Source of the DNA: Thermoanaerobaculia bacterium
Lineage (GTDB): Bacteria > Acidobacteriota > Thermoanaerobaculia > Gp7-AA8
Assembly: GCA_036383875.1 (NCBI GenBank)
Contig: DASVNL010000032.1
Span: forward strand, 1 to 43,649
Reading direction: 5' to 3'
DNA: 43,649 nt
Each line of letters begins with the position of its first letter. The stretch's first letter is position 1. The notes beneath the pieces are model-generated. The model saw only the letters and a list, made by a program, of their open reading frames with translations. It ran no database searches and had not been told where the DNA came from. The position numbers and the translations under genes were made by a program. This document shows, piece by piece, positions 7,134 through 43,517 of this stretch.

Positions 7134-7134
7134 C

Positions 7135-15960: not shown

Positions 15961-15962
15961 AC

Positions 15963-19639: not shown

Positions 19640-19641
19640 TC

Positions 19642-26478: not shown

Positions 26479-26479
26479 G

Positions 26480-26932
26480 ATGTTCGACGACACGCACGAT
26501 CTCATCCAGCAAATGATGGCCGCGTACGCCGACGACGCAGTCAGCTTTGCGCGTCAGGTCTTTTCGATCGAACTGAATTCATCGCCGGACAGCATCCAAC
26601 AAGTCGAATTCATCCTCGACAAACTCTCCCGCTCCGTCCGCCGAACCTGGCTCAAACGCCTCCTCCGCCTCGGCATGTCCGAAGAGCAAACCGACACCGT
26701 CGCGAAAATGTTCGGCGGCTACATCGGCGAAATCATCCGCAAAGACAAAGGCGGCATCTGGCAAATCATCGCCAGCCCCACCGGCGAAGGCGACGTCGTC
26801 GCCCTCGTCAACGGCGAAGACAAAATCTTCCCACCCGCCAAGGCCTACAAGCGGCTCGTAAACGGCGACGAGGACAACGTCTGGTTCTATTACCAGGTGT
26901 TGATGTCCGGCGAGGTTTACGGAAGCCGGTAA
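26480..26932 (+). CDS. hypothetical protein
   Basis: 150-aa ORF with normal composition. It starts 1 nt after the previous stop. Its 3' end overlaps the convergent caspase gene by 16 nt. No family recognised. Confidence 0.55.
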   Translation: MFDDTHDLIQQMMAAYADDAVSFARQVFSIELNSSPDSIQQVEFILDKLSRSVRRTWLKRLLRLGMSEEQTDTVAKMFGGYIGEIIRKDKGGIWQIIASPTGEGDVVALVNGEDKIFPPAKAYKRLVNGDEDNVWFYYQVLMSGEVYGSR

Positions 26933-28566
26933 CGACGCCGCTTTCGCGGGGCGTCTTTCCAGGCATCAGTCTTCCGCGCTGGATCTCCGTCTGAATCGAA
27001 GTATGCCGTTCGACGGGTCGTCGTGACCGCTATGTCCTGGCGCTTCAACTCGGGATCGCGGCTGACGATCTGCAGATCCCGAATTTCATCGCCTTCCGGT
27101 GCGACGCGGTGCCAGCGCACCGAAGCAGCACTCGTCAGAGAGAAGAGCGAGTCGGCTGTGGCCGCAACGATCCAGGGCTTATGACTCGAGGTTTGCCGGA
27201 ACACCGCGACGTTTCGCAATCCTGTGAGTCCGGTGAATTGGCCCGTAATCTCGCCATCGCGACCGATGATCGTGATCGCCGAATCGGAAAGCGCGACGAT
27301 TTGATCCACATGCTTGCGCTCTAAATCGCCAGTGGCGAATGTCCGAAGTCCGGGAATCTCCTTCTGCCTCACCTCCGCGAACTCGCGATTGAAGATGATG
27401 AGCCGTTCTTTGAGCGCGACGATGATTTCCGAAACACCGTCTGCGTCCACGTCGGCTACGCCCGCATGAAGGATCGGCGACGGAAATACGGGTTCCCAAA
27501 GCTTCTGGTTTTCCTGATTCTTCAGTGTCAGGTGGCTGCCATCGAATGAGACGCTCAACACTTCGCGGCCTGACGGTCGGTTCCAGCATTTCGAGAGCGG
27601 CATCCGGCCCGCGTTCCCGTCGATTCGTACCTGAATCGCAGCGCCGACCGGTGCTTTGTGATTCGCAAGAATCCATTGTTTGACCTGCTTCTCTGCATGC
27701 CGGTGCAGGGACTCGGCGGTCACAAATTCATCGGTCGCTGAAGCTTGGCAGTCCAGTCCATCGAGAACCGCCTTCGTGAAAACGCCGTTGCGACTCACGG
27801 CGTCGTCGTACGCGTAATTGCCTGCGGATGCCGCATAGAACACGACCTGACCGGATACGTTCTTCATCTTCTTTTCAATGTCGGGGGCGGCGGACGCCGC
27901 GCCGGAGCGGGTATTGCTGAGAGCGCGATCGCGGCAGGCGTCGACGAAGATCAGCGAACGGCGCACTGGCGAGTTTGAGACGATGTCGAAAAGGAGCGCC
28001 GTCTTGAGTGAGGTATGGGTGTCGGGATAGGTGGATGACTCCACGAGGATGTATTCACTGCCATCCGTCATGAACCCGTGCGTAGCGATGGAGAGGATGA
28101 ATATGCCGGCCGGCCCGGCGATCGCTGTCTGTTGTCGCAATTGATAGAGGATCTCGCGCGCGGTTGCCGTGACTTCTTTGGCGCCGGCCTCTTTCAGTTC
28201 TTTGAGGCGCTGCTTCGATTTGTCTTTCACCGGTGCGCCTGAGAGTGCGAGTACAACGCGTTGCGGCGGGATCAGGTGCAGGCGCCGGTCCATGGAAAAC
28301 ATGTACGCAAGGTCGACGGCATCGTCGACGGCGTATCGCACACCATACATGTCTTTATCTCTGAATTTGCTGACCCCCACGAACAACCCCGCGGATTCGT
28401 GGCGATCGAATTTCGGCTCGGGCGCTGCCGTCGTCGCGACCGCGCTCACGGGTCCTGCCGATCGCACGTGGCGTACGAGAGGGACGAATGTCGCGGTGGT
28501 CAGGCCGAGGAGGGCGAGGGCGAGGACGAGCGGCTTCCACGATCTCATCTGCATAGGCAAAGACAC
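26917..28566 (-). CDS. membrane-anchored caspase-family (peptidase C14) protein with C-terminal beta-propeller/FG-GAP-like region
   Basis: 549 aa. N-terminal TM anchor WKPLVLALALLGLTTATFVPLV. The His/Cys dyad contexts are FILSIATHGF and LIFVDACRD, followed by VVFYAASAGNYAYDD...GVFTKAVLDGL. The C-terminal half contains GVADVDADGVSEIIVAL. The start is ambiguous (GTG 28566, ATG 28554 or ATG 28548). Confidence 0.75.
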   Translation of the reverse strand: MSLPMQMRSWKPLVLALALLGLTTATFVPLVRHVRSAGPVSAVATTAAPEPKFDRHESAGLFVGVSKFRDKDMYGVRYAVDDAVDLAYMFSMDRRLHLIPPQRVVLALSGAPVKDKSKQRLKELKEAGAKEVTATAREILYQLRQQTAIAGPAGIFILSIATHGFMTDGSEYILVESSTYPDTHTSLKTALLFDIVSNSPVRRSLIFVDACRDRALSNTRSGAASAAPDIEKKMKNVSGQVVFYAASAGNYAYDDAVSRNGVFTKAVLDGLDCQASATDEFVTAESLHRHAEKQVKQWILANHKAPVGAAIQVRIDGNAGRMPLSKCWNRPSGREVLSVSFDGSHLTLKNQENQKLWEPVFPSPILHAGVADVDADGVSEIIVALKERLIIFNREFAEVRQKEIPGLRTFATGDLERKHVDQIVALSDSAITIIGRDGEITGQFTGLTGLRNVAVFRQTSSHKPWIVAATADSLFSLTSAASVRWHRVAPEGDEIRDLQIVSRDPELKRQDIAVTTTRRTAYFDSDGDPARKTDAWKDAPRKRRRYRLP

Positions 28567-28580
28567 GCCATCGTCGAAAG

Positions 28581-28596
28581 GGTGGCGCGCGCCACC
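28581..28596. promoter_or_regulatory. perfect 16-bp palindrome GGTGGCGCGCGCCACC (A/T flanked) in the 77-bp divergent caspase / vWA intergenic region
   Basis: Read directly: gaaag GGTGGCGC GCGCCACC ttttt, at 28577-28601 with flanks. No upstream plus-strand gene is present for it to terminate. Confidence 0.5.
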
Positions 28597-28643
28597 TTTT
28601 TCCCTCCCTCGTGTCCTTTCATGGACAGCAATCAGGGAGACAT

Positions 28644-29774
28644 ATGAGACGCGGACTCCTCATCGCGGTAGCGTTGCTTCTCATTTCCAATGAGGCCTCG
28701 GCGCAGAAGCTCGGGCCGGTCGACTGGATCTTTCTCGTCGACACGTCGAAGTCGATGCGTGGCATCGGCCGCGACACGAAGGACATCTTTGGCGACGTAA
28801 AAGAGAGCCTCAAGTCGTTCGTACGCGAGACGAACGACGGCGACACGGTCGCGATCTTCACGTTCGATCGCAAGGTGAGTCCGATTGCGAAGATGGACGT
28901 GAGCGGACTCACGCGCGCCGATCTTTACGAGTCGATCGAGCAGCTAAAGGCCGAAGGGGACCGCACGCACCTCGGTGCCGCGATCGCGAAAGGTCTCGAT
29001 CGTGCGGAGTTCTTGCGCACGCATTCCGATCCGACGCGCGCTCGCGCCGTCGTGTTGTTCACGGACGGCAAAGAAGACATTCGCGGAATTGAGAACCCAA
29101 CTCACATCAACGCGAATCTTGCCGGAACCTCGGACTCGTACGTCTACTTCGTTTCGATGGGCAAGGAGCACGAGAAACAACTCGACGAATTTGCCAAGAG
29201 CACTCCGCGCGCGACCGTGCTGCGCGCAACTACGCGCGAACAGATTCGCGCCATGGCGCAGACGATTCGCCGAGATCTCCCGAAGCCCACGCCTCCACCG
29301 CCCATCAAAGAGAAGCCGGCGACTCCACCGCCACCACCACCACCGCCCTCTCCGTGGATGCGCGCACTGCGCTGGTTGATCGAGCTCGCGATCCTCGGCG
29401 GTATCGCGATCTTCCTGCTGCAGCAGCAGCGCAAGAAGAATCGGCTCGAAGGGGAGATCGAGATTCTGCGACCGCAGACCGCGCCCGACCTCGCATTTGT
29501 CGGACTGCCGAAATTGCAGGCGAGCGAGGTGATGCTCAGCGCGATTCTGCCGCTCGACGCATTGAGCGGCGGCGATGCGCGTCTGTTCGTCAAGCGCAAA
29601 GACGGGAAAAAGAAAATCTGGATTTCCGCCGCCGGCGGCGGACTGCGCATCAACGACGTCGACACGCCGGTGAGCGAGTTGTACGACGCCGACACGATCG
29701 AGATCGGCACCGCGAAATTGCGCTTCAACCGCGTCGGCGACGAGCGTCCGTACGACGTCGACTCCGCCCACTAA
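28644..29774 (+). CDS. exported vWA-domain protein with poly-Pro linker, single TM and cytoplasmic FHA-like C-terminal domain
   Basis: 376 aa from ATG 28644 (SD AGGGAGA). Signal peptide MRRGLLIAVALLLISNEASAQ. The MIDAS motif is FLVDTSKSM. The linker is PKPTPPPPIKEKPATPPPPPPPPSP. The TM is WLIELAILGGIAIFLL followed by RKKNR (positive inside). The C-terminus LRINDVDTPVSELYDADTIEIGTAKLRFN resembles the end of an FHA domain. Confidence 0.75.
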   Translation: MRRGLLIAVALLLISNEASAQKLGPVDWIFLVDTSKSMRGIGRDTKDIFGDVKESLKSFVRETNDGDTVAIFTFDRKVSPIAKMDVSGLTRADLYESIEQLKAEGDRTHLGAAIAKGLDRAEFLRTHSDPTRARAVVLFTDGKEDIRGIENPTHINANLAGTSDSYVYFVSMGKEHEKQLDEFAKSTPRATVLRATTREQIRAMAQTIRRDLPKPTPPPPIKEKPATPPPPPPPPSPWMRALRWLIELAILGGIAIFLLQQQRKKNRLEGEIEILRPQTAPDLAFVGLPKLQASEVMLSAILPLDALSGGDARLFVKRKDGKKKIWISAAGGGLRINDVDTPVSELYDADTIEIGTAKLRFNRVGDERPYDVDSAH

Positions 29775-29796
29775 TCACTCGAGAGAGAGGCCTCCA

Positions 29797-32553
29797 ATGA
29801 AAAACAACGTCGTGTTTCGCCCCACTGTCGTCATCGGACTCGGTGGTACCGGCTATGGCGCATTGCTGAAGTTGAAGAAGCGTTTCGTCGACGCGTACGG
29901 CTCGGTGCCGCCGATCATTCGCTTCCTCTCGATCGACACGACGGAGAACGCCGAGGGGACGACGCGGACGGAGGAGGCCCCGCAGGAGGGTGGGCTCGAT
30001 CACAACGAGATGTACGTCCTGCAGGTCGGCAATCCCGGAAATCTCGTGGGAAATGGAACGAATCCGCATCTCGATGAATGGTGGCCGCCCGAAATTCCGA
30101 CGCAGGCCATCATCGCGGGCGCCGGCCAGGTGCGTGCGCGCGGACGCCTGGCGCTCTTCGCGAAGGCGCAAGAGGTGCGCGCGCGGATCCAGCGCGCGAT
30201 CGACGACGTGCGAAACATCCGCAATCAGAAGCAGATGTATTCGGATCAATTTCAGATCTCGAATCGTGCGGGCGTTGAAGTGCACATCGTCGGCAGTCTC
30301 GCGGGTGGCACTGGCAGTGGGACATTTCTCGACGTCGCGTTCATCGCGCGCGACATCATCGGCAGCGACGAGAACTCGAATTTCACCGGCGTGTTGTTGT
30401 TGCCCGGGATTTTCACGCGCTACGCGGGAGTCGCGCTCGTCAAGCCGAACGCGTACGGCGCGCTGAAAGAGATTGAATATCTCTCGACGATGAAAGGCAG
30501 TCTCACGATCGACTATGGCATGCGCCGCGTCGAGGTGACGCGGCCGCCGTTCGACGTCGTCTATCTGATCGACAGCATCAACGAGCAAGGCCGGGTCGTC
30601 ATGGAACAGAACGATCTCCTCGGCCTGATCGCAGACGGAATGTACGTCCAGATCGGATCGCAGATCGGCACCGACAGCGCGAACGCCGTCGACAACATCA
30701 AGACCCAGATTGCGACCGCGGGTCGCGTCAAAGGACGTTCGCCGCAGTACTGCAGTTTCGGCGTCGCGTCGCTGACGATGCCGACGTTCGACGCGCTGAT
30801 GTGGGAGGACGCGAAACGCCTCGTCAATGATGATCTCCTCAATGGCGCTGTCGCGGATTCCGAAGTCGAAGAAGAGGTGCAGCGCTTCATCGACCAGAAC
30901 CGCCTGCGCGAAGACGAGGCCGATCAGGTCGTCGAATTTCTCAGTCAGCGCGAGGGCGGCGGTCAGTTGCGCATCCCGATGCCGCTCACGCAACTCACCT
31001 TCGACAACAAGGCCCTCGGCGCAATCAAGAATCTGCACACCACGCATCGCTCGCGCGCCGAGCGTCAAATTGCGCAGGCCATCGGCGCGAATTTCGAGAA
31101 ATTACGCGATGACTGCGTGGCAGCGATCACGACGCTATGGGAAGCGAAGGTGAATCGCATCAATGGATTCACGCGCGCGGAGCGCTTCTTCGAGAAGCTC
31201 CAGGCGAAGCTGGAGTGGTACCAAAACATGATGGACGGCGAAGCGAAGGAGGAGCGCACGAAGCTGAAGGCGCTGAGCTTCAAGCCGGCCGAGGATCAGA
31301 TTACGGAGGCGGCGGGCGCGTTCTTTAGTCGCGAGGCGCGCGTGAAGACGGCGTGCGAAGTGTACGGCGGACTGGTCGATCGCGAGACCGAACTGACGAT
31401 TCGTGTCGCGCGACTCGAGAAGGCCGCCGAGCTTTATTCGACGCTGCATGCGCACACGCAATCGATCCTCAATTCCTGCTACCGCATCCGCGAAAACCTC
31501 AATGCATCGCGCAAGCAATTCGAGCAGCAGTATCTCGACGCGACGAACCCGCGCGGGTCGTCGCGGTTGTTCGAACAGACCGTCGCCTTCGATCCCGGCG
31601 CACAACGTCCGAAGGTTCTCGGCGATGACTTCGTGAAGTGGTACGCCGATCATCACGCGAACGGCTCGCTCTCGCAGTGGGCCGGACTGCGCGCGGCCGA
31701 AGTCCACGCGGACATTCGCCAGTTCGTCGAGAAATGTTATGAGCCGCTCACGTCACTCACGATGGACGACATCCTGAGCCGTCTCTCGCCGGATGCGGTG
31801 TCGCAGGAATTGAAGCGCCTGGATAATCTCGCCGTTCCTCTCTGGCGTTACGACCTCGGCAGAATTCCGGTCGTCAATCAAACCATCATCAATGAGTTCT
31901 ATCACTACGGCGTTTCAGACGCGGAGTCGACGGTGCTCAAGGCGGCGCGTTATGCGACGGGCGTTCCCAAGGGCAACGCGCAACCGGGCATGGTCTCGAC
32001 GCGCGACGCGAACCGCATCCTCCTGTTCAAGGTCAAGACCGGCATTCCGCTGTTCGCGCTTGCCGACATTGAAGACATGGAGCGCGCGTATACCGATCCG
32101 AACAAGATCATCTCGTGTCACCTTCACCGCGACTGGAAGGAACTACAGAACCTCATTCCGCGCAGTGGCGACGGCGAGGCATTGCGGTGGTTCGCGCTCG
32201 CGCAGGCGCCGGAGCCGTTCGCGATCATCAAGCGCGAGGGCGCGTGGTATTCGATGAAGTCGAAGGGCGGCAAGCGCCTCGACAACAACATGGTTCGACT
32301 CGCGCAGGGCCGCGTGCCGGCCTACAACGCGTTCGAGAAAAATCGGGAACTCGTTCAGGAAGCGGAGGAATCGATCGATGCCGTAGTCACGCGCGAAGGC
32401 GCGGTGCGCGTCATTCAGATCCTCAAGGACTACACGGACACGCTCTCGAAGCAGATGAGCGGGACGGCCGTCGATCCGGTGGTGAAGGATCAAGTCGAGA
32501 ACGAGATTCTGGCCATTGAGGATTACGTGCGGCGGATGGAGACGCTGAGCTGA
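29797..32553 (+). CDS. tubulin/FtsZ-superfamily GTPase (Tubulin_2-like) with a ~600-aa helical C-terminal extension
   Basis: 918 aa. T1-like VVIGLGGTGYG lies at 29836-29859. The tubulin-signature-like motif GSLAGGTGSGTFLDVA has AGGTGSG at 30301-30321. No signal peptide or TM. No division/cell-wall gene context. Confidence 0.75.
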   Translation: MKNNVVFRPTVVIGLGGTGYGALLKLKKRFVDAYGSVPPIIRFLSIDTTENAEGTTRTEEAPQEGGLDHNEMYVLQVGNPGNLVGNGTNPHLDEWWPPEIPTQAIIAGAGQVRARGRLALFAKAQEVRARIQRAIDDVRNIRNQKQMYSDQFQISNRAGVEVHIVGSLAGGTGSGTFLDVAFIARDIIGSDENSNFTGVLLLPGIFTRYAGVALVKPNAYGALKEIEYLSTMKGSLTIDYGMRRVEVTRPPFDVVYLIDSINEQGRVVMEQNDLLGLIADGMYVQIGSQIGTDSANAVDNIKTQIATAGRVKGRSPQYCSFGVASLTMPTFDALMWEDAKRLVNDDLLNGAVADSEVEEEVQRFIDQNRLREDEADQVVEFLSQREGGGQLRIPMPLTQLTFDNKALGAIKNLHTTHRSRAERQIAQAIGANFEKLRDDCVAAITTLWEAKVNRINGFTRAERFFEKLQAKLEWYQNMMDGEAKEERTKLKALSFKPAEDQITEAAGAFFSREARVKTACEVYGGLVDRETELTIRVARLEKAAELYSTLHAHTQSILNSCYRIRENLNASRKQFEQQYLDATNPRGSSRLFEQTVAFDPGAQRPKVLGDDFVKWYADHHANGSLSQWAGLRAAEVHADIRQFVEKCYEPLTSLTMDDILSRLSPDAVSQELKRLDNLAVPLWRYDLGRIPVVNQTIINEFYHYGVSDAESTVLKAARYATGVPKGNAQPGMVSTRDANRILLFKVKTGIPLFALADIEDMERAYTDPNKIISCHLHRDWKELQNLIPRSGDGEALRWFALAQAPEPFAIIKREGAWYSMKSKGGKRLDNNMVRLAQGRVPAYNAFEKNRELVQEAEESIDAVVTREGAVRVIQILKDYTDTLSKQMSGTAVDPVVKDQVENEILAIEDYVRRMETLS

Positions 32554-35351
32554 TGCTCAAGCCCGTTAGCATTCTCGCCCTCGACGATGCCTCGGCGCCG
32601 CTCGCAATGGCGGTGCAACAACGCATCGCGTCGCAGCTCGAGCTCGACGATCTCGTGCAATGCCGCGCCATTGGAGCGACGACGCTCGAGGATGCGATTC
32701 AGTCAATTCACGCGCAGCGCCAGCGTCCCGACAGTCCGCTGCGCGTGCGCGACGATCTCAGTCCGCGCGAATTGGTGATGGTCGTGCTGGCCGCGTCCGG
32801 GCCCGCACGATTGACGCTCATCGAGACGGTGCAGCGCATTCGCCGTCATTACGAGTCGCGCCACCTGGTGTCGTTCTTCACGATTGAGATTCTCTGCTTG
32901 ATGCCCGAGGTGATTGGGGCGAAGGAGAAGGGCGACTATGCGAATGCATATGCGTTGCTGAAGGCGCTGAGCGCCGATGGTGCGAAAGCGTTCGACGAAG
33001 TGTGGCTGCTCGACGCGACCAACGGCGCGCGCGTGCGGTTCGGCGCGATCGACACGGCGCTCGATGCCTACGCGGATGCCGTTGCGGGCTCGCTGTTACA
33101 CGAGCCGGAGATGAGCGGCGCGCTGCCTGGCCTCCATCCGCGCGGGATGCATCCGACGTTCAGTTCGTTCGGATACGCGGAGCTCGTGTTTCCGCGCGAC
33201 ATCGCGCTGCGGCGGCTCGAGCCGCGATTCGCGGTGCAATTGCTGCGCGAGACGTTGCTCGCCGGCAAGGAGCCATCGCACGCGCAACTTGCGGCAAAGC
33301 AGTTCGTCGCGAGCGATGAGTTCACGACGCCGCTCGCGCGCATCGGCGTCGACGCGGGGCAGTCGCTCTTTCAGCGATTCCAGGCGCGTGCGCACGTCAC
33401 GGAGCAGACGCGCAGTGCGGACGAATTGATCGCGGCGGTGCGCGCCGAGTTGAAATCGTTTCGCGACACGACGCATCTCAAGAATCTCGAGACGCTCGCG
33501 AAGCAGGGCGAGCAGACATCGCGCGACTTCGCGACGCGACTCGCGCGCGTCGTCGACGAGACGCTCGATCGCGACGGATACGACTCGGCGATCGCGCTGC
33601 TCGACGCGTTGCTCGATCCGCTGCCGGATTTGCGTCCGGACGCGGAGCTCGCGCCGCGCAATCTCGTGACGGAAATCGGCGCGGCGACGGCGGCTCTCGA
33701 CAAGCAGTTGCAGTTCACGCCCAACACCGCGACGAGCGACGCCGCGCGCAAGCGCATCCGTGAGCTCGAGACGTTGATGCAGGATCAGAAGCTCGTCGCG
33801 GAGTCGCTGTCGCCGGTGTCCGCGGCGGAGCAACTCGAGGAAATGCAACGCGAGAAATCCGCACTGTTGCAACGCGTGCCTGAGGTGCTGTTCGCGGAGG
33901 AGCGGGAGAACAACGTCGCGCGCAACGCGGCGCGCGAGGCGGAGACGGCGCGACTGATGGCGGAGACCGAGGGGCGCGAGCAGACGTTGCGCGAATTGTT
34001 TGCGCAGTTGCCGCGCGCGGAGCAGGCGGTGCGTGAGGCGCTGGAGTTGCGACGCGACTGGCTGCGCAAGCAGGTCCTCACCGCGATCGCGGGCGTCGCC
34101 GCGATGTATGGGCTGCCATTCGTTTTCGGTCTGCTGCGCCCGAACCTCGAGCGCATCCACTGGGCCACCGGCCTCGGCCTGCTGACCTTCGCGATCGTCT
34201 GCACGTATCGCTACTTCAATCAAATCCAACCGCTCGTCAGCGGTGCGCGCGCGGCACTGGCGCGACTGCGTGAACAGATCGCGGCGACCGATCAGTCGAA
34301 GAACGCGGCGCACAACGACGAGCTGCGATTCGAATACGACATGGCGCATCGCCGCACGACGATCCGTGTGCTGCGCGAAACGCGCGACGTCGCGAAGACG
34401 ACGCTAGACGCCGTGCGCGCGCGACGCGTCGAGCTCGAGGAACTGGCAGCGGCGCTGACGCCGGCGTCGATCGTCTCGAGCGGACTGACGATCGCGATCG
34501 TGGACGACGCGGAAGTCGACGCGTGGTACGAGCGCACGATCGAGGATCGCAAGCCATTCGTGCGCGAGTTTCCGATCACGCGCGCGCAGTCGCGACAACT
34601 GGCGCTCGATGATCTGCGCGAACGCATCGTCGCGTACACCGCGACGGCGTTCGACGCGTTCCGCAAGTTCACGCTCGCCGATGCAGCGGCGAATGTCGCG
34701 AGCGAGCCGAAACTCACGCAGCGCATGAAGCGATTCACCGATACGAGCGCGCCGCTGATCGAAGTGCGCGACGACGATCTGCACGCGCAGAACGCGATGC
34801 AGCGCGACGCGACGTTGTGGGCAGACAGCAGCGATCGGACGTGGCTCGAACAGCTGCAGCGTCGCTTTCCGAGCGCGCATTTCAAGGCGTCGTCGGATGC
34901 ATTGCGCGTCCACGCGATCACGCGCGTCCTGCACTATCCGGCCTACGTCCTCGGGCAAATCGAGTATTACCGCGCGCAATACGAAGCTGCATCGCAGCGC
35001 GAGTCCGCCGACGTCGCGGATCTGCTGCCGCCCGAGCTCATTCTCGGGACGCCAGTGCGGAACGCGTACGAGCAGGTGCTGCTCGCACGCGCGGTCGGCG
35101 TGATCTCGCAACACGCCGACGGGCAACTCTTCGCCTCCGACTCCGCCCTCGGCAACTCGCACTTCGCCGCGGCTCAACGCATCGCCGATGCAGCGCCGTT
35201 GCGCGATGCGTTGGAGAACGCGCTCGCGCCGCGATTGGAAATCGCGGGCGATGTCACGCGGGATTTGCGCACGCTCGGCGAGTTGCCGCTCACGCCGCTC
35301 GAACGCAATCTCGTCGACGCGTTGCTCAAGAGGTACGCGGCGCTGGCGTGA
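32553..35351 (+). CDS. degenerate tubulin-like paralogue with coiled-coil regions and a central two-helix membrane hairpin
   Basis: 932 aa. TGATG 1-nt overlap with the upstream gene. The N-terminal ~250 aa are collinear with the upstream protein, but the GTP motifs are replaced (ILALDDASAP for IGLGGTGYG; VVLAASGPARL for GSLAGGTGSGT). The TM hairpin lies at ~34074-34215 (LTAIAGVAAMYGLPFVFGLL ... WATGLGLLTFAIVCTYRYF). Long Glu/Arg/Leu/Ala-rich helical stretches are present. Confidence 0.7.
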   Translation: MLKPVSILALDDASAPLAMAVQQRIASQLELDDLVQCRAIGATTLEDAIQSIHAQRQRPDSPLRVRDDLSPRELVMVVLAASGPARLTLIETVQRIRRHYESRHLVSFFTIEILCLMPEVIGAKEKGDYANAYALLKALSADGAKAFDEVWLLDATNGARVRFGAIDTALDAYADAVAGSLLHEPEMSGALPGLHPRGMHPTFSSFGYAELVFPRDIALRRLEPRFAVQLLRETLLAGKEPSHAQLAAKQFVASDEFTTPLARIGVDAGQSLFQRFQARAHVTEQTRSADELIAAVRAELKSFRDTTHLKNLETLAKQGEQTSRDFATRLARVVDETLDRDGYDSAIALLDALLDPLPDLRPDAELAPRNLVTEIGAATAALDKQLQFTPNTATSDAARKRIRELETLMQDQKLVAESLSPVSAAEQLEEMQREKSALLQRVPEVLFAEERENNVARNAAREAETARLMAETEGREQTLRELFAQLPRAEQAVREALELRRDWLRKQVLTAIAGVAAMYGLPFVFGLLRPNLERIHWATGLGLLTFAIVCTYRYFNQIQPLVSGARAALARLREQIAATDQSKNAAHNDELRFEYDMAHRRTTIRVLRETRDVAKTTLDAVRARRVELEELAAALTPASIVSSGLTIAIVDDAEVDAWYERTIEDRKPFVREFPITRAQSRQLALDDLRERIVAYTATAFDAFRKFTLADAAANVASEPKLTQRMKRFTDTSAPLIEVRDDDLHAQNAMQRDATLWADSSDRTWLEQLQRRFPSAHFKASSDALRVHAITRVLHYPAYVLGQIEYYRAQYEAASQRESADVADLLPPELILGTPVRNAYEQVLLARAVGVISQHADGQLFASDSALGNSHFAAAQRIADAAPLRDALENALAPRLEIAGDVTRDLRTLGELPLTPLERNLVDALLKRYAALA

Positions 35352-35355
35352 CGCG

Positions 35356-36126: not shown

Positions 36127-36138
36127 GGCGGCTCCTTG

Positions 36139-37941
36139 TCAACGCCGTAGTTTACGCGGCGGCACGGATTCAAACGCCGCTCTTTCGATCGACCACGCGC
36201 TCGTCGTCAGCGTGCGGCCGGCGCGAATGCCATCCCAGTCGAGCACCGACGGATTCGGCAGCGGCTCTTCGGTCGACAAGAGAAAGAACAAATCGGCGCC
36301 ATACGGCGGCTTGACCTCGAAGACGGAGTTGTCGCCGAGGGTGATCGTGGATGCGATTTCACCAAGAGGAAAGCGATTCTCGACCGAGCCGTTGCTGCTT
36401 TGTGGGAACGCGAGAAAGCTTTTGCCGTGGCTGTCGATCACGAACGCGTAGTAGTAGCGTTTCGGCGCCCTGCGATTCGTGCCTTGCAATACGACGCGAT
36501 AGCGCTCGCCACCGATGAGCGTGTTGCCGGTGACGAGCGACCGATCGGCTTCGCGTTGCAGCGCGAGCCGGTACGGCGCGGCGGGCCCGGGCGGAGACTC
36601 GAGATTTCGCCAGCCGTGAATCTTGCGCAGCGTCAACGCGGACTCGCGCAGCGACGCACGGTTCGCAATCCACGCGCTTCGTTCATTTCGCGCGCCGGTG
36701 CGAATCCACGCGTGCTCTTGACCTTTGCTCGCGAGGATGTAGTCCGCGTCTGCCGCAGTTGCGACGATCTGGAAGCCGTCGCTGGAATCGATGATGCCGG
36801 TCAGCGGCGATTGCGACCACACGCGCAATGGTCGCGACGGAGGTGCGGCCCACGAGCTCACTTCGAGCATTGCGCCGGCGGTGACGCGGCCACGCTCGAT
36901 GCGCGCGACGCTGCGGTGAATGCCGAGGAGACGGGTGACGACGAGGCGGGACGCGTTGTCGCGCGTCTTGAGGATGCTGCCGATCGCGAGGCCGTTCGCC
37001 CAGCCGCCCTGCACGACGACGGTGCCGTTCGCATCGACGCGTTCGATCGCGACAACCGATTGTCGATCGCGAAGGTGGAGTCGCGTGTCGAGGAAGGGTC
37101 GATTGCGAGCGGCGCTCGTTCCCGCAAGCACGGGCTGCTGATCGGGATGCTCGGCGCGCATCCGCGCATGGGCGCGAAGGAACGTCTGTTGCGCGGACTC
37201 GTGCGGTGTCGCGTCGCGCAGAGCGTGCAGGAATGCCCACGTGAAGTCGCCGTGCAGTTCATCGTCGTCGCCCAACGATTCCCACGCGGTGCCATTGTCC
37301 TGTGCAGCCGCGATCACGAGCGCGCCGCGCGTTTCGGGTCGCGGGCCGTAGTCTGTGCGATCGCGCACGTCGGTGGTCGCGGGCTGAATGCTGCGCGTGC
37401 GAGGTGATCCGCGGAAGGACGAGCCGCTGTTGCAATGATCGAGGAGCAGCGTGAGGTGCGTCCCGCGATCGAGGATCGCGTTGAAGCGCGTGCGCAGTTC
37501 CTTGTCGCGAATGTCCGGCGCGCCGCGACGCGAGTCGGCGGGAACGATTGATTCGTCGAGCCGATCGAGTTCGTCGGACAGCGAATTGGGAATTTGCGAG
37601 CCGTGCCCGGCGAAGTAGAAGAACGCGACATCGCCTTTGCGTGACGCGTTCACGAGATCGTCGATGGCTCGCAGGATTGCGACGCGTGTCGCGCGTTGAT
37701 TGAGGAGCGTGACGACGTCGCCCGTCGCGAATCCGTATCGCGACGTCAATAGCTCGCGGAGCAATTGTGCGTCACGTGCCGCGCCACGGAGATCAGGCCA
37801 GCCGCGATGCTCGACGTTGCGTACTTTTGGGATGGTCGACGCGGTGTAATCGTCGATGCCGATGATCACCGCGCGTTTGCGAACTGTTTGCGCGTCCGCG
37901 GTCATCGCGATCAGGCAGGTGAATGCGAGAACGAATTTCAT
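36139..37941 (-). CDS. exported caspase-family (peptidase C14) protein with C-terminal DUF4384-like domain
   Basis: 600 aa from ATG 37941 (MKFVLAFTCLIAMTADAQ signal; ATGA overlap with the upstream gene stop). The dyad contexts are FFYFAGHGSQ and LLLDHCNSGS. The C-terminus YYYAFVIDSHGKSFLAFPQ...FEVKPPYGADLFFLLSTEEPL matches my memory of DUF4384. Confidence 0.75.
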   Translation of the reverse strand: MKFVLAFTCLIAMTADAQTVRKRAVIIGIDDYTASTIPKVRNVEHRGWPDLRGAARDAQLLRELLTSRYGFATGDVVTLLNQRATRVAILRAIDDLVNASRKGDVAFFYFAGHGSQIPNSLSDELDRLDESIVPADSRRGAPDIRDKELRTRFNAILDRGTHLTLLLDHCNSGSSFRGSPRTRSIQPATTDVRDRTDYGPRPETRGALVIAAAQDNGTAWESLGDDDELHGDFTWAFLHALRDATPHESAQQTFLRAHARMRAEHPDQQPVLAGTSAARNRPFLDTRLHLRDRQSVVAIERVDANGTVVVQGGWANGLAIGSILKTRDNASRLVVTRLLGIHRSVARIERGRVTAGAMLEVSSWAAPPSRPLRVWSQSPLTGIIDSSDGFQIVATAADADYILASKGQEHAWIRTGARNERSAWIANRASLRESALTLRKIHGWRNLESPPGPAAPYRLALQREADRSLVTGNTLIGGERYRVVLQGTNRRAPKRYYYAFVIDSHGKSFLAFPQSSNGSVENRFPLGEIASTITLGDNSVFEVKPPYGADLFFLLSTEEPLPNPSVLDWDGIRAGRTLTTSAWSIERAAFESVPPRKLRR

Positions 37942-38324
37942 GGCCACGATCCGCACGGTTCCAGCGACCGCGCTTCCTTTTCAGTCGTGGCGCCGTAAGT
38001 CCACAAACGTTCATTGACGTCTCGGTAGGTGACGGCGCGAAATCTACGGTCGGCGGCGAATTTCTGAATGCCGCCTTCGTAGACCTTGTATTTCGGCGAG
38101 CCGTATTGAAACGCCTCGACGATGTTGTCAGTCAGCGCTTGGCCGGTCTGCACGAGCAGCACCTGACAATCGTTGCCGGCGGCGTAACTACGGATGCTCC
38201 ACTTGGGGAATTGTCTGTAGCGTTCTGTGAGCTCATCCGACGCTTTGATGTGAGCCTCGGCGACAGGATCGGCATCGCAGGCCAGAAAGAGAGTGAGCAG
38301 AGTCATAGCGAGCAGGCGGTGCAT
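37938..38324 (-). CDS. small lipoprotein, unknown function
   Basis: 128 aa with the lipobox LTLFLAC. SD AGGAGG upstream of ATG 38324. Translationally coupled (ATGA) to the caspase gene. Confidence 0.6.
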   Translation of the reverse strand: MHRLLAMTLLTLFLACDADPVAEAHIKASDELTERYRQFPKWSIRSYAAGNDCQVLLVQTGQALTDNIVEAFQYGSPKYKVYEGGIQKFAADRRFRAVTYRDVNERLWTYGATTEKEARSLEPCGSWP

Positions 38325-38343
38325 GACGCCTCCTGATGAGAGA

Positions 38344-38373
38344 ACGGCTCGCCATCAAGCGATGGCGAGCCGT
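38344..38373 (-). other. perfect 13-bp stem / 4-nt loop intercistronic hairpin
   Basis: ACGGCTCGCCATC aagc GATGGCGAGCCGT lies between the stop at 38391 and the SD/ATG of the lipoprotein gene. No U-tract follows on the minus strand (tctctc). Confidence 0.6.
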
Positions 38374-38390
38374 CGAATGGAAGTGTGGGA

Positions 38391-39452
38391 TTACGGCCAG
38401 GTCGTCGGGGGACAGAGGGAGCGGTCGTACAGCGTCCGTCCGACATCGAAGCGCAGCGCGGTGAGCAGCGCCGACGCCGTCGTGCCCGAGGGGTGGATGC
38501 TCGACCACGTCACCTCGGGGACCTCGATTTCGCCGACCGCGCCTGCGCGCGGCACGAGGCGCTCCTCGCGCGCCGGCGGCTCTTCGAGCAACTCGTAATA
38601 CATCTCGAAGTGCTTGCCGGCCTGCGGGGCGTTGTTGTTCGACGACGCCGGCGGAACGAACGGCGGGAGATTCACGACCGCCACTTCGACCTTGCCCGAC
38701 ACGTCGGGAGAGAGCGTCATTGTGCGGCCGCCGCCGGCGTATTTCGATTCAACGAATTTCACGCTGTCGCCGGTCACAGTGATGTCGGCGCCGACCCACG
38801 TGGCCACGGCCTGAACGTAGGCGGAATTACTGCCGGTACCGTCGAGGCGATTGAAATGCACGGGCGTGACGTCACTGCCGATGCGCGCAATGCCGAACGT
38901 GTACAGATCGCCGGCGGACAGCTTGAAGCGCGCGGCGATGAGCTCCGGCGGGATCGTATCGAACACGTCGGCGTCGAGCGTGCAGCCGCCACCGCAGACG
39001 GTATTGAGGCTGGCGATCCAGGAGATGTCTTCACGCTCGCTGGTCGTCGTCGGGATGACTTTGGGATTGCCGTTGGTCGTGCCGCGCACGTTGTCGCGGA
39101 GATTGAAGGCTGGGAGATTGGCCGCGCCGGAGCTGGCTTTCTCGACAGTGATGTCGGAGCCGGCGATCAGCCATGCGCTGCCGTCGCCCAATGCGGTTTC
39201 GAGTGAGTCCACCGCGGTGGACGGCGTATCGCGGAAGGTGGTGTTGGCGATGGTGCTGTTGTTGGTGACGCAGTCGCCGGTGCAGTCGCCGGCACGCGCA
39301 TAAAGGATGGGCGTGTGGGCCTGCAGGGCGGCGCCGTCGGACGTGTGATAGTGATCGGCGTTGAGAAGCAGCACGGTCACTTCCGTGCCGTTCTCATTGG
39401 GGACGAAGGCCATCAGGCCGGTGAACAGAATTCTCAGGATGAAGGTGCTCAA
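38391..39452 (-). CDS. hypothetical protein, unknown family
   Basis: 353 aa from TTG 39452 (SD GGAGGA 8 nt upstream). Normal composition. It begins MSTFILRILFTGLMAFVPNENGTEVTVLLLNADHYH and contains Cys pairs GDCTGDC and CGGGC. It overlaps the CHAT 3' end by 59 nt. The track start (39500) is also possible. Confidence 0.55.
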   Translation of the reverse strand: MSTFILRILFTGLMAFVPNENGTEVTVLLLNADHYHTSDGAALQAHTPILYARAGDCTGDCVTNNSTIANTTFRDTPSTAVDSLETALGDGSAWLIAGSDITVEKASSGAANLPAFNLRDNVRGTTNGNPKVIPTTTSEREDISWIASLNTVCGGGCTLDADVFDTIPPELIAARFKLSAGDLYTFGIARIGSDVTPVHFNRLDGTGSNSAYVQAVATWVGADITVTGDSVKFVESKYAGGGRTMTLSPDVSGKVEVAVVNLPPFVPPASSNNNAPQAGKHFEMYYELLEEPPAREERLVPRAGAVGEIEVPEVTWSSIHPSGTTASALLTALRFDVGRTLYDRSLCPPTTWP

Positions 39453-42168
39453 TTTGTTTTTCCTCCAGTGCTGGTGTGGTGCCGTACGGCGAAGTCGCAA
39501 ATCCGACTGCCTGGAACGGGGCCCACACCATTGCTGACTTTCTCGGGAGCATTTCGAGCTGCGCCTTTCTCAGCGCCGCTGCCATATCGGCTCCTTCGCG
39601 ATAGTGACGATGAAATGACACGAACAGATCGTGTGCTGTGGCGTCATTCACCTTCCAAAGCGTGCCGACGATTCCCGGAACATTGGCCGCAACCAGCGGC
39701 CGCACTAGAGACGAGAGTCCTTCCGGCCCAATGGACTGGCCATCCGTGGTACTGCACGCGGCCAGAACGAAGAGACGAGTTTTTTCAAGGGTGTCGAAGT
39801 TGGCGAGCAGGCGCTCCGCCGTGAGCTTCCCCCGGTCTGCGCCCGAAGGAGCGAGCACCAGCATCGACTGCGAGGGCGCCGCGCTGTCGGATTTCGCGTG
39901 ACCGGCGAAATGAACAATGGAGCTTTGCCGCGCGTGCGACAGAAATTCGGGCACCGTAGCCTCGGTATCGACGAGCGATGTGACCGCGGAACCATAATAT
40001 TGGGCGAGACTCGCCGGCTCCATCCGGGCGTTCGGCAGCCGTCCCAGGCCGACGAAGTCCTCGAGTGAAAATGCCGGATCGCCGACGACCAGAACCTTGC
40101 CGTGGGGATCGCGGGGTAATTCCCGATCGCGCGCTACTGCATAGAAAAATAAAGACGCACTGCCGGCCACCGACACGGGACCCTTTTCGATCAGGTATCG
40201 ATTGGCGTCGTCCTTTAATGCCTCGAATGGCAGCGCGTGCATCGGCCCATCCGGGACGATGATGAAGCGAGGCATCGGGTGTTTGACCGACGTCAGTGCC
40301 GGCGCAAGAAGTCCGTCGTAGGGAGCGCGTAGTCCATCGTCGAAGCTCTGCTCATATCCATCCGCGATGGCGGCGTGAAGCGTCGCGACCCAAGCTTCGA
40401 TCTGTCCCCGCGTCGCGCGAAGTCTGAAGAGCTTGACGTCGTCACGCGAGATGAGCCACACGAAGGTGTGATTCTCCAGGACCAGATATTCGAGGATGTA
40501 CGTACCGGCAGGGAGGGACGTATGCGCGTCTTTCAGCTCGCGCAAAGACTCGATTTTGTGAAACCCGGCCGGCGGCGTCCGCGAGTGCAACGCGAGATAC
40601 ATTGGCTCGAACGCGCGCGCCTGTTCCGCCGAAACGAGAGCCGCCTCCGTCTCTTGCCGCGCGGCCTGCTTTTCGATCTGCGCGTGGTAATGCGACTGAA
40701 AGCGGGAGAAGTATGGCGTGGAGAATTCCTCGAACTTCCCGCGCTCACGCCCGCGCAGCAGCGCCTCCTGCTCTTTCCTCAGGACCTCCAACGCCGTGAC
40801 CACGTCCTTCTGTTCGCTCGCAGAGTCGCCGGCAAAACGATGTGCGGCTGAGCGTTTGAGGTAGAGGAGAAAGAGCCGCGTCGGATTTTCACCAGTAGCC
40901 GTGTCGATGGCTTTCGTGAAAATCTTTACTGCCTCGGCCGGCTTGCTCTTGGCGAGCAACTGCGCCTCGACTTCGTCGATCTCCGATCGCACCAGGTTGT
41001 ACGTTTCAGTACCCAGTTGAGCGGAGTCGAGCACGCGTTGGGCGAGGTCAATGTCGAGCGCAGCGTCGGCTTCGCGTCCCAGTTCGAGCTCGAGTGCGGC
41101 GCGTGCGCGCAGCGCGACGGCGTATTCCTGCTTAGGTTTGCTCGCACGCCCGGCTGGAGCCAGAGCGACGGCGCGCTTGATGTCCTCGACGGCGACTTCC
41201 TGATAGAGGAGCCCCAAGCGGGGATGGCCTTGCAATCGGAGAATCGTGGCGATTGAGCCGTAGGCGATGTGGCGCTCGCGAAGATCAGTGATTCGGGGGA
41301 AGAGGTCCACGATCCGTAACGCATCTTTCCACGCCAGGTCATCGCGACCGAGATACTGATGAGTCAGAATTCTTCGGCCAATGATGGATTGATACTGAAC
41401 GTTTGAGTCGCGCTCCAGTTCGTCAAAGTACGGTAAGGCTTGCAAGTACTCGCCCCGGAAGTTGTGAGACTCGGCGAGAAGTAGGGCGGCTCTGTACCGA
41501 AGCGACGGGTAGGTCGCCTTCATTGCGGCGTCGAATGCCGGCTTCAATCGTGCGATTGCCCCCGAATAATCTTGCATCGAATACAGCGCAAACCCGGTGT
41601 TGTAGTCGGACAACGCTTTCAACGGGCCACTGGAGGCAACAGGAGGATGCCCGATGACAAAGCCCGCAGCCAGGAGGTCACTCGGAAAGCGATCGCCATT
41701 TTCGGCGAATACGGTTGCAAGTAAAGGATTCGGATCCCCCAATTCGAAATAGGACGCGACGGGCGAAGGGAAGGCCTTGACGAATTGCTGCATCGTCGCG
41801 CGATCGCCTCTTTGAACGGCAGCTATAAACCGGTCGCGATCTGCGACGAGCGGCGGCGGGATGCTCAGCAATTCATCGCGACGCTTGCGGGCTTCGCGGC
41901 TCCATTCGCCCTCATTCATCTTTACGACGTTGTCGAACGTCGCGATGGCCAATCTGGTCAGGCCGAGCTCTTCCTGAATGACGGCCAATTTGTACTGCTT
42001 AGAAGGGGAACTGGGATCAGCGGCTACCTCGGCGGTGGCGAGTTCCCAGGCTCGCGGTAAATCTGCGGGCGGGGTTCGCCCCTTTTCGAATCGGGCCGTG
42101 TCTTCCTTTGTGCAGGCCGGCAAAAGGCTGCAGAGAGATAGAAGAATGCAAATGATTCTTTGTTTCAC
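39394..42168 (-). CDS. TPR-repeat + CHAT-domain (caspase-fold protease) lipoprotein
   Basis: 924 aa from GTG 42168 (VKQRIICILLSLCSLLPAC lipobox). The middle is a long TPR-like helical repeat region. The C-terminal CHAT contexts are IVHFAGHAKSD and LFVLAACSTTDG, ending VWAPFQAVG. The track ORF start (42444) would overlap the divergent sigma gene. Confidence 0.75.
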   Translation of the reverse strand: MKQRIICILLSLCSLLPACTKEDTARFEKGRTPPADLPRAWELATAEVAADPSSPSKQYKLAVIQEELGLTRLAIATFDNVVKMNEGEWSREARKRRDELLSIPPPLVADRDRFIAAVQRGDRATMQQFVKAFPSPVASYFELGDPNPLLATVFAENGDRFPSDLLAAGFVIGHPPVASSGPLKALSDYNTGFALYSMQDYSGAIARLKPAFDAAMKATYPSLRYRAALLLAESHNFRGEYLQALPYFDELERDSNVQYQSIIGRRILTHQYLGRDDLAWKDALRIVDLFPRITDLRERHIAYGSIATILRLQGHPRLGLLYQEVAVEDIKRAVALAPAGRASKPKQEYAVALRARAALELELGREADAALDIDLAQRVLDSAQLGTETYNLVRSEIDEVEAQLLAKSKPAEAVKIFTKAIDTATGENPTRLFLLYLKRSAAHRFAGDSASEQKDVVTALEVLRKEQEALLRGRERGKFEEFSTPYFSRFQSHYHAQIEKQAARQETEAALVSAEQARAFEPMYLALHSRTPPAGFHKIESLRELKDAHTSLPAGTYILEYLVLENHTFVWLISRDDVKLFRLRATRGQIEAWVATLHAAIADGYEQSFDDGLRAPYDGLLAPALTSVKHPMPRFIIVPDGPMHALPFEALKDDANRYLIEKGPVSVAGSASLFFYAVARDRELPRDPHGKVLVVGDPAFSLEDFVGLGRLPNARMEPASLAQYYGSAVTSLVDTEATVPEFLSHARQSSIVHFAGHAKSDSAAPSQSMLVLAPSGADRGKLTAERLLANFDTLEKTRLFVLAACSTTDGQSIGPEGLSSLVRPLVAANVPGIVGTLWKVNDATAHDLFVSFHRHYREGADMAAALRKAQLEMLPRKSAMVWAPFQAVGFATSPYGTTPALEEKQIEHLHPENSVHRPDGLRPQ

Positions 42169-42210
42169 GCATTCACTAAGATACGCGCTTCGCGCGATCG
42201 GAGACGAATC

Positions 42211-42774
42211 ATGACCAATCAGAACGGCGGCGGTGGCGGCGACGATCTGTTCCGGTCTCTGTACAAACGCTATTACCAGCGCATGCGTCGCTTTTTTCGA
42301 AGCGTCTTCAAAGTTTCGGAAGAAGATGCAGAGGAATTGACACAGGACGCATTCGTCCGGTTTTTCAAAGCCATCCGTGAATATCGCGGCGACGCTGAGT
42401 GGGCGTTTCTCGAGGCCATCGCGCGCAACGTCGGATACAACCACATCCGCTCACTGTCTACACAGCGACGCGGAAGTGTCCGGCCGGTTTCGTTGGACGA
42501 TCCCGCGGCTGGGTTCCAGGCGCCGCGCGCGTTGGTCACCGACCCGATCGACAGCATGATCGAAGGCGAGCGGCGGCAACGGTTGCGCGAGGCGATCACG
42601 AAATTGCCGAAGGGCCAGCGCGAGGCGTTGCAGTGGTGGCTGGATGGGCTTTCATACGAAGAGATCGCACGATTGCTGCGAAGCTCGGTCGACGCGGTGA
42701 AGTCGCGCATCCGCGATGGCAAACGGTTGTTGCGCGAGCGGCTTGGAGTCGCTGACCCGGAGGATGAGTCATGA
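42211..42774 (+). CDS. ECF-type RNA polymerase sigma-70 factor
   Basis: 187 aa from ATG 42211 (SD GGAGA). The region 2-like sequence is EDAEELTQDAFVRFFKAIREYRGD. The region 4 HTH is LPKGQREALQWWLDGLSYEEIARLLRSSVDAVKSRIRDGKRLLRERL. Confidence 0.85.
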   Translation: MTNQNGGGGGDDLFRSLYKRYYQRMRRFFRSVFKVSEEDAEELTQDAFVRFFKAIREYRGDAEWAFLEAIARNVGYNHIRSLSTQRRGSVRPVSLDDPAAGFQAPRALVTDPIDSMIEGERRQRLREAITKLPKGQREALQWWLDGLSYEEIARLLRSSVDAVKSRIRDGKRLLRERLGVADPEDES

Positions 42775-43517
42775 CCAATCAGTCGGAGTGGCAGGAAGCG
42801 AATCGCGAATTGATCGCCGAGGCGCGCCGGAAGTTCGGCGAGCCGCCGACGGCGGAAGAGATGTTTGCATACAGCCGGGGCGAGATGTCCGAGGAGGAGG
42901 CGGATCGCATTCGCGAGATGCTTCTGGCGTATCCCGAGCTGGCGCGCGCCTACAGCGCGGAGTTTCCCGAAGCGCCAGTACCGGGCGACGCGGATTACGT
43001 TCCCGAGGCCGAGGTCGATGCGGCGTGGAACGCGCTGCAGTCGCGACTTGGCGCAAACGGCAAGATCGTGCGGTTCCGGAACTTTCCGACCGCGGTCGCG
43101 GCGCTCCTCGCGGTCGTGTTCTTCGGACTGTTCGTCTACGCGGAAGGGCGGGCGCGCCACTATCGCGGCCTCGCGATCACCGGGCCGGTCGTGGTGCGCG
43201 AGTTTCAGGAGTTCGATGCGGACACGCCGCGCGGAGGCGCAATTCCGCAAACGCTCATTGGGGTCGGGGACCTTTACGCGATGAGCCTGCGACCGCTCAC
43301 CGGCGTCCGTTACGAGAGCTATCGCATCGAGATGGTCCGCGATGGTGAAGAGCCGATCCGCATCAACGATGCGAAGCTCGACGACAAGGACTCTTTCAAC
43401 ATCGTCATCCCCCGAGGACTGGTGCGTCCGGGCGATTACCGCCTGCGCATCTACGGCATGGATGGGCGCGACGATCACGACGCCGGGACCATCCTCGTCC
43501 GGGTCCCGACCCCCTGA
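42771..43517 (+). CDS. putative anti-sigma factor (single-pass membrane protein)
   Basis: 248 aa. ATGA overlap with the sigma gene. It has a cytoplasmic helical N-domain (no HxxxCxxC), the TM AVAALLAVVFFGLFVYA, and a ~120-aa extracytoplasmic C-domain. The role is inferred from position. Confidence 0.6.
   Translation: MTNQSEWQEANRELIAEARRKFGEPPTAEEMFAYSRGEMSEEEADRIREMLLAYPELARAYSAEFPEAPVPGDADYVPEAEVDAAWNALQSRLGANGKIVRFRNFPTAVAALLAVVFFGLFVYAEGRARHYRGLAITGPVVVREFQEFDADTPRGGAIPQTLIGVGDLYAMSLRPLTGVRYESYRIEMVRDGEEPIRINDAKLDDKDSFNIVIPRGLVRPGDYRLRIYGMDGRDDHDAGTILVRVPTP

Follow-up and report, generated by a model that had tools for sequence, protein, structure and literature searches.

Does a cluster of caspase-fold protease genes arranged around a tubulin-like operon encode one machine or several? 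The question is raised by a contig of 43,649 nt from a soil bacterium of the class Thermoanaerobaculia, phylum Acidobacteriota (GenBank assembly GCA_036383875.1, contig DASVNL010000032.1, forward strand), here termed the window over its whole length, in which positions 26917-43517 carry three protease genes, a tubulin-like GTPase gene with its neighbors, an ion channel gene and the genes of a sigma factor of the extracytoplasmic function (ECF) type and of an anti-sigma factor. A preliminary description, made from the sequence alone, had proposed that these genes form a single envelope-located system of proteases, cytoskeletal GTPase and channel. We compared the region with approximately 170 related loci (numbered below with the prefix L). 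By this approach, the observation itself was confirmed and the earlier interpretation was partly supported. The explanation that we favor, at somewhat better than an even chance, is that the region consists of two self-contained neighboring modules plus variable cargo, and that the protease module acts like a split form of the DdvA/DdvS signaling pair.

The gene content was directly observed, and the domains and coordinates of all 11 genes were upheld by open reading frame (ORF) listing and Pfam search, as follows (position, strand, product):

26917-28566, minus strand: caspase 1, Peptidase_C14 (Pfam E 4e-9)
28611-29774, plus strand: vWA protein (Pfam VWA E 6e-15)
29797-32553, plus strand: Tub, an FtsZl1 / Tubulin_2 GTPase (Pfam Tubulin_2 E 2e-64)
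32553-35351, plus strand: partner, a degenerate FtsZl1 paralogue of 932 aa (no Pfam hit)
35356-36126, minus strand: Kv-type K+ channel (Pfam Ion_trans/Ion_trans_2; Ion_trans E 1.5e-19)
36139-37956, minus strand: caspase 2, metacaspase-like C14 (Peptidase_C14, Pfam E 1e-24)
37938-38324, minus strand: 128-aa lipoprotein (conserved lipobox FLAC)
38391-39452, minus strand: 353-aa conserved unknown protein (u353, P0121; ORF call)
39394-42168, minus strand: lipoprotein TPR-CHAT protease (Pfam CHAT E 6.5e-51)
42160-42774, plus strand: ECF sigma factor (Pfam Sigma70_r2, r4_2, ECF)
42771-43517, plus strand: single-pass anti-sigma-like protein of 248 aa (transmembrane helix; start overlaps the sigma stop at 42771-42774)

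Module A, the triad of vWA, Tub and partner genes, occupies 28611-35351 on the plus strand. Module B, the protease cassette, occupies 36139-43517 and includes caspase 1 at 26917-28566. Conservation of the cassette was assessed in a metagenome scan with the 353-aa protein as seed; of the 80 loci returned, 41 were 12 kb or longer, and these gave the following counts:

CHAT, 353-aa, 128-aa lipoprotein and caspase 2 genes in the same order: 41/41 loci
ECF sigma and anti-sigma genes, divergent from and adjacent to CHAT: 40/41 loci
Caspase-1-like gene: 25/41 loci
Triad within reach: 11/41 loci
K+ channel gene: 4/41 loci

The single locus without the ECF pair had no upstream room. The order of the cassette was invariant in these 41 loci although protein identities dropped to 31-50%. 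The caspase-1-like gene was variable in position (after caspase 2, between the lipoprotein gene and caspase 2, upstream of the anti-sigma gene, or beyond the triad) and was found to travel with the cassette, lying directly after caspase 2 in the triad-less loci L122, L123 and L133.

The two modules were directly observed to be separable. When loci were gathered by a triad-centered scan (one genome per GTDB species, 80 loci), only the triad genes were conserved in the Nostocales (43/43), where the flanks are housekeeping genes, and caspase and CHAT genes were missing from all Nostocales loci examined for them (35/35). Triads without caspases were also found in Thermoanaerobaculia (L005/L029 and L009/L031), and no caspase or CHAT gene was present near the triad of L007, L036, L171 or L172. 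From the side of the cassette, 31 of the 41 loci were informative for the triad, which was within reach in 11 and not in the other 20, a 10-kb flank being able to miss a triad that lies farther away (as at L139 and L012). Triad-positive and triad-negative loci were interleaved on a neighbor-joining tree of the 353-aa protein (L119 with and L122 without the triad; L022 with and L133 without). A decayed triad was detected at L131 (14903-17336), where Tub is deleted and a vWA remnant (residues 6-200) adjoins a partner remnant (residues 301-931), with the protease genes intact. The K+ channel was present in 4/41 cassette-centered loci and in 6/15 triad-centered loci, the latter being Thermoanaerobaculia species-level genomes whose flanks each spanned 5 kb or more. 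Thus, an obligatory protease/tubulin/channel machine, as the preliminary description had envisaged, is not supported: each module is conserved without the other, and the channel is sporadic.

The proteases of module B look extracytoplasmic and catalytically intact, a conclusion supported by their active-site motifs and by export calls made with heuristics and orthologue N-termini. The catalytic dyad motifs quoted in the preliminary description were present, and the His and Cys residues were invariant in every orthologue recovered, namely His163/Cys211 of caspase 1 in SIATHGF and FVDACRD (55/55), His118/Cys175 of caspase 2 (66/66 and 63/63) and His757/Cys805 of the CHAT protein in FAGHAKS and LAACSTT (81/81 and 85/85). 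Caspase 2 has a conserved Sec signal peptide, and in essentially all CHAT orthologues there is a lipobox, after which x(1-3)-EDT is conserved; for these two enzymes the earlier claim of an extracytoplasmic location stands on conserved export signals. The N-terminus of caspase 1 carries a hydrophobic anchor (residues ~10-28) whose flanking charges are ambiguous, and export of this enzyme is only probable, because the anchor is conserved, some paralogues carry typical signal or lipobox sequences, and the C-terminal part is an FG-GAP-like beta-propeller (the L003 orthologue gave faint FG-GAP_3 / Beta-prop_CGLA matches). Caspase 2 resembles metacaspases and orthocaspases (MEROPS C14B, yeast Yca1) in its p20 core with matched GHG and DxC motifs; it was aligned to the yeast metacaspase 4f6o (E 4e-14) with FAGHGSQ opposite YSGHGGQ and DHCNSG opposite DSCHSG. 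It differs from them in being exported by a Sec signal peptide and in its large C-terminal domain (~320 aa; faint DUF4384 match in an orthologue), and its score against NCBIfam caspase_w_EACC1 was 59 bits, below the cutoff of 140.

The remaining two products of the protease operon had been listed as unknowns. The lipobox of the 128-aa protein was kept in all orthologues, and its gene occurred in every one of the 41 cassette loci; the protein matched none of the families in Pfam, NCBIfam or PADLOC. The 353-aa protein was corrected to one without a signal peptide: its N-terminus and those of its distant relatives open directly with a conserved strand. It has two conserved CxxxC pairs and belongs to a family of 405 representative clusters (E up to 0.001). 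An AlphaFold2 (AF2) model built from 26 sequences was poor (predicted local distance difference test score, pLDDT, 54.8), and a Foldseek search with it against the PDB gave no match at E up to 0.001. One distant family member, P0372, has a C-terminal extension of ~300 aa whose motif TAAHV...GDSGA hints at a chymotrypsin-fold serine protease, although Pfam gave no hit; if this protease is real, the 353-aa domain would be tied to proteases by fusion as well as by neighborhood.

The ECF sigma gene, with a likely start at ATG 42211 (MTNQ...), lies head to head with the CHAT gene; their start codons are ~40 nt apart (42168-42211), likewise in most relatives, and therefore both promoters must lie inside the opposite coding sequence. 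The genes on either side overlap or nearly abut (an overlap of ~59 nt between the CHAT 3' end and the 353-aa gene start, another of 19 nt between the 128-aa and caspase 2 genes, and one of the sigma stop with the anti-sigma start), which suggests that the cassette is made up of two divergent operons. The anti-sigma-like protein has a predicted N-terminal cytoplasmic helix region, a transmembrane helix (residues 105-123) and a ~120-aa periplasmic domain; it gave a weak match to the NCBIfam anti-sigmaE model (E 0.0096) and was collinear with a 286-aa protein beside the CHAT gene of L038 (E 2e-4). Conserved k-mers upstream of the sigma gene were considered as promoters and rejected, as they proved to be the reverse complement of CHAT coding motifs (EDT, VEPR). 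No sigma-70-like site was found in 26000-43649, compared to 2.8 expected. The sigma and anti-sigma starts share a near-identical 20 nt, GAyGArTCATGACCAATCAG (42203-42222 and 42763-42782), and both proteins begin MTNQ; this context could be a duplicated translation-initiation region or chance.

Two precedents tie a TPR-CHAT protease to an ECF-type sigma factor. DdvA is an anti-sigma factor fused to a periplasmic TPR-CHAT domain and is proposed to be a site-1 autoprotease acting ahead of RseP, CHAT-dependent cleavage of the anti-sigma factor still being only a proposal (PMC11506125). In the type III-E craspase, Csx29 (TPR-CHAT) cleaves Csx30, which relieves the inhibition of the ECF-type CASP-sigma (PMC10028731). 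The cassette shares with DdvA/DdvS the genetic coupling of an ECF sigma factor, a single-pass anti-sigma factor and a periplasmic TPR-CHAT protein with a His-Cys dyad, and differs in having two extra C14 peptidases and two unknown proteins and in lacking a nearby CBASS (cyclic oligonucleotide-based antiphage signaling system) or CRISPR regulon. It shares with the craspase a TPR-CHAT protease tied to an ECF-type sigma factor, and a profile of 13 CHAT sequences matched the CHAT chain 8d9h_E, as well as separase and TPR proteins, only weakly (all E >0.002); the craspase differs in being cytoplasmic and RNA-guided, whereas here there is no CRISPR and the protease has a lipoprotein signal.

The strict head-to-head arrangement of an exported TPR-CHAT gene with the ECF/anti-sigma pair, together with these two precedents, suggests the logic of a split DdvA. 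An envelope cue, the presumed signal, would activate one or more of the periplasmic clan-CD proteases, which would clip the periplasmic part of the anti-sigma factor, the presumed cleavage target. Intramembrane proteolysis would follow, releasing the sigma factor and turning on a regulon that would probably include the protease operon itself. The C14 enzymes may act as further steps or as outputs. Crosstalk with module A is possible and is required by no evidence here.

Module A is not new: the triad is the vWA/FtsZl1 operon, which was predicted to remodel membranes (Makarova and Koonin 2010, Biol Direct 5:33) and whose FtsZ-like family is Pfam Tubulin_2 (PF13809). Tub matched Tubulin_2 over residues 11-330 (218.8 bits, cutoff 27) and has both G-rich GTP-binding loops, GLGGTGYG (residues 14-21) and AGGTGSG (169-175), with G16, G17, T18, G19, G170, G171, T172, G173 and G175 invariant in an alignment of 21 sequences. 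In an AF2 model (pLDDT 75.6), the first ~330 aa adopt the FtsZ/tubulin fold (Foldseek against FtsZ/CetZ: probability 1.00, E 1e-4, template modeling score (target) 0.4-0.5) and the remaining C-terminal part forms long helices. A look-up of the exact Tub sequence found none on record. The partner was related to the Tub family by hhalign (probability 99%, E 8e-18, 655 columns), has lost the GTP signature (AASGP-A where Tub reads GGTGSG) and has a predicted membrane hairpin at residues ~505-555 (segment near residue 510); the partners of L008 and L171 gave weak Tubulin_2 matches. The vWA protein, with a likely start at Met12 (28644), is laid out as a Sec signal, a vWA domain with an intact metal ion-dependent adhesion site (MIDAS; DTSKS, within VDTSKSM), a Pro-rich linker, a transmembrane helix (residues 252-270, followed on the C-terminal side by four positive charges) and a ~110-aa cytoplasmic tail. 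Its signal peptide with an AxA site directly before the domain was kept in all phyla, as judged by orthologue N-termini, in agreement with the earlier placement of the vWA domain outside the cytoplasm.

In nearly every locus with room, the vWA gene was found upstream of Tub, the partner adjoined Tub, and the three genes occurred together, in Thermoanaerobaculia, Pyrinomonadaceae/Blastocatellia and Nostocales. As in the 2010 operon, a Tubulin_2 protein without FtsZ_C or Tubulin_C domains stands beside a MIDAS-intact vWA protein with signal and transmembrane segments, has membrane-associated partners and coexists with ordinary cell-division genes. The present form differs in its minimal set of three genes, the last of which encodes a degenerate FtsZl1 paralogue bearing a membrane hairpin, and in lacking the protein kinase, P-loop GTPase and OmpA partner. 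A caspase or CHAT neighborhood is unmentioned by Makarova and Koonin 2010, where the word "caspase" has no occurrence. In line with the 2010 hypothesis, we infer an outside-in relay in which binding to the vWA ectodomain would prompt the FtsZl1 pair to assemble, in a GTP-dependent manner, on the inner side of the membrane. The triad is also comparable to the GAP1-N2 systems among the GTPase-centered conflict systems of Firmicutes and Actinobacteria, in which two tubulin-domain proteins with helical C-termini accompany a membrane protein with an extracellular vWA domain, in a class where caspase-type effectors are common more widely (Kaur, Burroughs, Iyer and Aravind 2020, eLife 9:e52696); it differs in lacking a GAP1-N2/DO-GTPase, MoxR AAA+, FNIII and HSP70 and in belonging to another phylum.

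Several related triads have neighbors of their own. A DUF4126 membrane protein is encoded directly after the partner gene in L038 (15983-17032) and L171 (16109-17167) and could be a fourth component of the triad that is specific to this lineage. At L043, a DUF4062-NACHT-HEAT STAND NTPase gene (4652-8167) lies upstream of the triad, and transposases followed by a C14 gene occupy 16082-19878; at L008, an Asp-protease-TIR gene is upstream. The locus of P0401 has a solo Tubulin_2 gene, its product 74% identical to the L038 protein, without a vWA or partner gene; its neighbors are a guanylate-cyclase-like gene and a gene for a 1636-aa PNP_UDP-nSTAND-HEAT protein, with a phage integrase 3.4 kb upstream.

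Between the partner gene and caspase 2 lies a spacer of variable content, of which the K+ channel gene is accessory cargo. The channel has a TVGYGD filter and an R-rich S4 (RIARIARIARLLRGLR); its gene begins 12 nt downstream of caspase 2 in the window and is probably co-transcribed with it. The spacer holds the channel gene in the window and L001, DUF4236 in L003 and L173, and extra sigma/anti-sigma pairs in L015 and L030, which suggests a cargo hotspot. In L173 (14144-15867), DarT and Macro genes (a DarTG-type toxin-antitoxin) together with DUF4236 lie between caspase 2 and the triad, where the window has the channel.

The preliminary description had called the region an island. As a region it holds, with the K+ channel, the two unknowns and the ECF sigma/anti-sigma pair present as described (Pfam, transmembrane helix), and as foreign DNA it was rejected: the G+C content (~63% for the window) equals that of the flanks with no break, there are no mobility genes, no tRNA and no Rfam match was found in the window, and the repeats bounding the triad or the region were only short ones at chance level. 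In keeping with the earlier account, integrase, transposase, TIR, nuclease, STAND and AAA+ domains were absent from the 11 region proteins (Pfam, PADLOC, NCBIfam), and no AAA+, MoxR or P-loop GTPase was found in these proteins or in the upstream 26 kb. PADLOC-DB v2 recognized no defined system in the region; its generic caspase model matched at E 3e-4 and 4e-19, a BovA model matched the CHAT domain weakly (E 8e-6), and the vWA protein, Tub, the partner and the unknowns had zero matches. NCBIfam likewise recognized no system and added little beyond generic caspase and vWA matches.

A number of findings weigh against the favored explanation of two neighboring modules with a split-DdvA cassette. 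With regard to mechanism, the CHAT protein is encoded by a separate, divergent lipoprotein gene and is unfused to the anti-sigma factor; the anti-sigma factor has no Cys and thus no zinc-binding (CHCC) motif; and no significant similarity of the CHAT protein to a DdvA chain in our PDB copy was detected at E up to 1 by phmmer or profile search. On these three counts the cassette is no member of the DdvA family, and it is best said to work like DdvA, by analogy, rather than to be a DdvA. The ECF promoter pattern GAAC-N(15-18)-CGT was essentially absent upstream of the sigma genes, and the lack of a signal peptide on the 353-aa protein means that the products are not all in one compartment. With regard to modularity, a caspase-fold gene was found within ~10 kb of the triad in 13/15 Thermoanaerobaculia species. 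The adjacency persists over three layouts: triad between caspase 1 and caspase 2 (type A, that of the window), triad beside a contiguous caspase1-caspase2 block (type B; L020, L026, L030) and cassette upstream of the triad (type C; L041). The outer flanks differ (window/L001 versus L003) while the block persists. At L038, outside the class, an exported TPR-CHAT gene, a sigma-like gene and the anti-sigma homologue lie immediately upstream of the triad and share its strand, and at L043, a Blastocatellia genome, an exported 300-aa Peptidase_C14 is encoded downstream of the triad, past two transposases (rve and Mutator types). The limited reach of the 10-kb flanks, noted above, acts in the same direction. 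Linkage of the triad is thus non-random within Thermoanaerobaculia and sporadic elsewhere, and to call the modules merely neighbors may understate a facultative functional link, which is possible.

These points of linkage are also what favors one integrated envelope system of proteases, vWA/FtsZl1 proteins and channel, with a role in defense, developmental lysis or envelope remodeling, in which, for example, the proteases would process the vWA ectodomain or FtsZl1 assembly would be the output. Other triads adjoin TIR, NACHT, nSTAND, RHS or DarTG genes, and Kaur et al. 2020 place tubulin pairs with extracellular vWA proteins in predicted conflict systems. We nevertheless regard such integration as unlikely in view of the solitary triads of the Nostocales and several Acidobacteriota, the informative cassette loci with no triad within reach, the interleaving on the tree, the decay of the L131 triad beside intact proteases, the rarity of the channel and the failure of PADLOC to recognize a system. 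A narrower form, that the Acidobacteriota cassette and triad cooperate as an envelope-surveillance device, is in our judgment quite improbable. A phage, predator or kin cue would be sensed by the vWA ectodomain and/or the anti-sigma factor, periplasmic clan-CD proteolysis would transduce it, FtsZl1-driven membrane remodeling would execute the response, and the spacer would be a hotspot for extra effectors (K+ channel, DarTG); if true, caspases would here serve an immune or death pathway that operates outside the cytoplasm, without a STAND or AAA+ NTPase.

ECF sigma genes commonly regulate a divergent neighboring operon, and co-regulation would account for the head-to-head placement in 40/41 loci no less well than cleavage does. 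The proteases could therefore be the output of the ECF switch, induced by some other envelope stress to degrade or mature extracytoplasmic substrates such as misfolded envelope proteins, competitor or phage proteins, or surface adhesins, as the intact dyads of all three enzymes would allow. This explanation is doubtful to us, though it is a real contender: both characterized TPR-CHAT/ECF pairings act upstream of the sigma factor, and TPR-CHAT and C14 enzymes are typically site-specific regulators, not bulk degraders. Pure phylogenetic inertia, by which functionally unrelated genes would be neighbors through close kinship of the sampled genomes, draws on the Tub identity of 80-88% across type-A loci and on the 353-aa family members of the locus scan, which are 49-71% identical and form one clade. 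It is very unlikely given that the block outlasts changes of its outer flanks, that cassette order is invariant at far lower identities, and that the overlapping or near-abutting genes suggest operons.

Upstream of the region, bases 1-24,000 (to ~24100) of the window form a complete-looking pectin/uronate utilization locus that encodes DUF4861, GH28, UxaC, an enolase-superfamily dehydratase, a short-chain dehydrogenase/reductase and a PfkB kinase, as well as:

10308-14627: 1439-aa ORF with GH43, GH43_C2, pectinesterase, GDSL lipase and GH88 domains
15770-19639: TonB-dependent receptor

With its five domains, the 1439-aa ORF may encode a genuine multi-enzyme, or the mechanical ORF call may have joined several genes. 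Between a molybdopterin oxidoreductase gene and caspase 1 lies a 150-aa ORF (26480-26932) with no family match and no counterpart among the related loci; it may be lineage-specific or not a gene.

For the tubulin-like operon, which has been a prediction only for 15 years, a minimal and strictly conserved three-gene form is now defined; its exported vWA protein, FtsZl1 with intact GTP loops and membrane-anchored degenerate paralogue are a target for reconstitution. In view of the facultative linkage and of the variable spacer with DarTG in one relative, we hypothesize that the locus is a candidate conflict hotspot. In the main texts of the ECF classifications that were searched, no ECF group is tied to CHAT or caspase genes, and no description of the ECF/CHAT/caspase cassette was found in the searchable literature; the cassette appears to represent an undescribed form of CHAT-linked ECF signaling. 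If the reading of the cassette as a split DdvA is true, CHAT-triggered release of an ECF sigma factor would no longer be confined to a few Myxococcota and would take in a widespread soil clade, in which the protease and its substrate would be separate polypeptides and easier to test.

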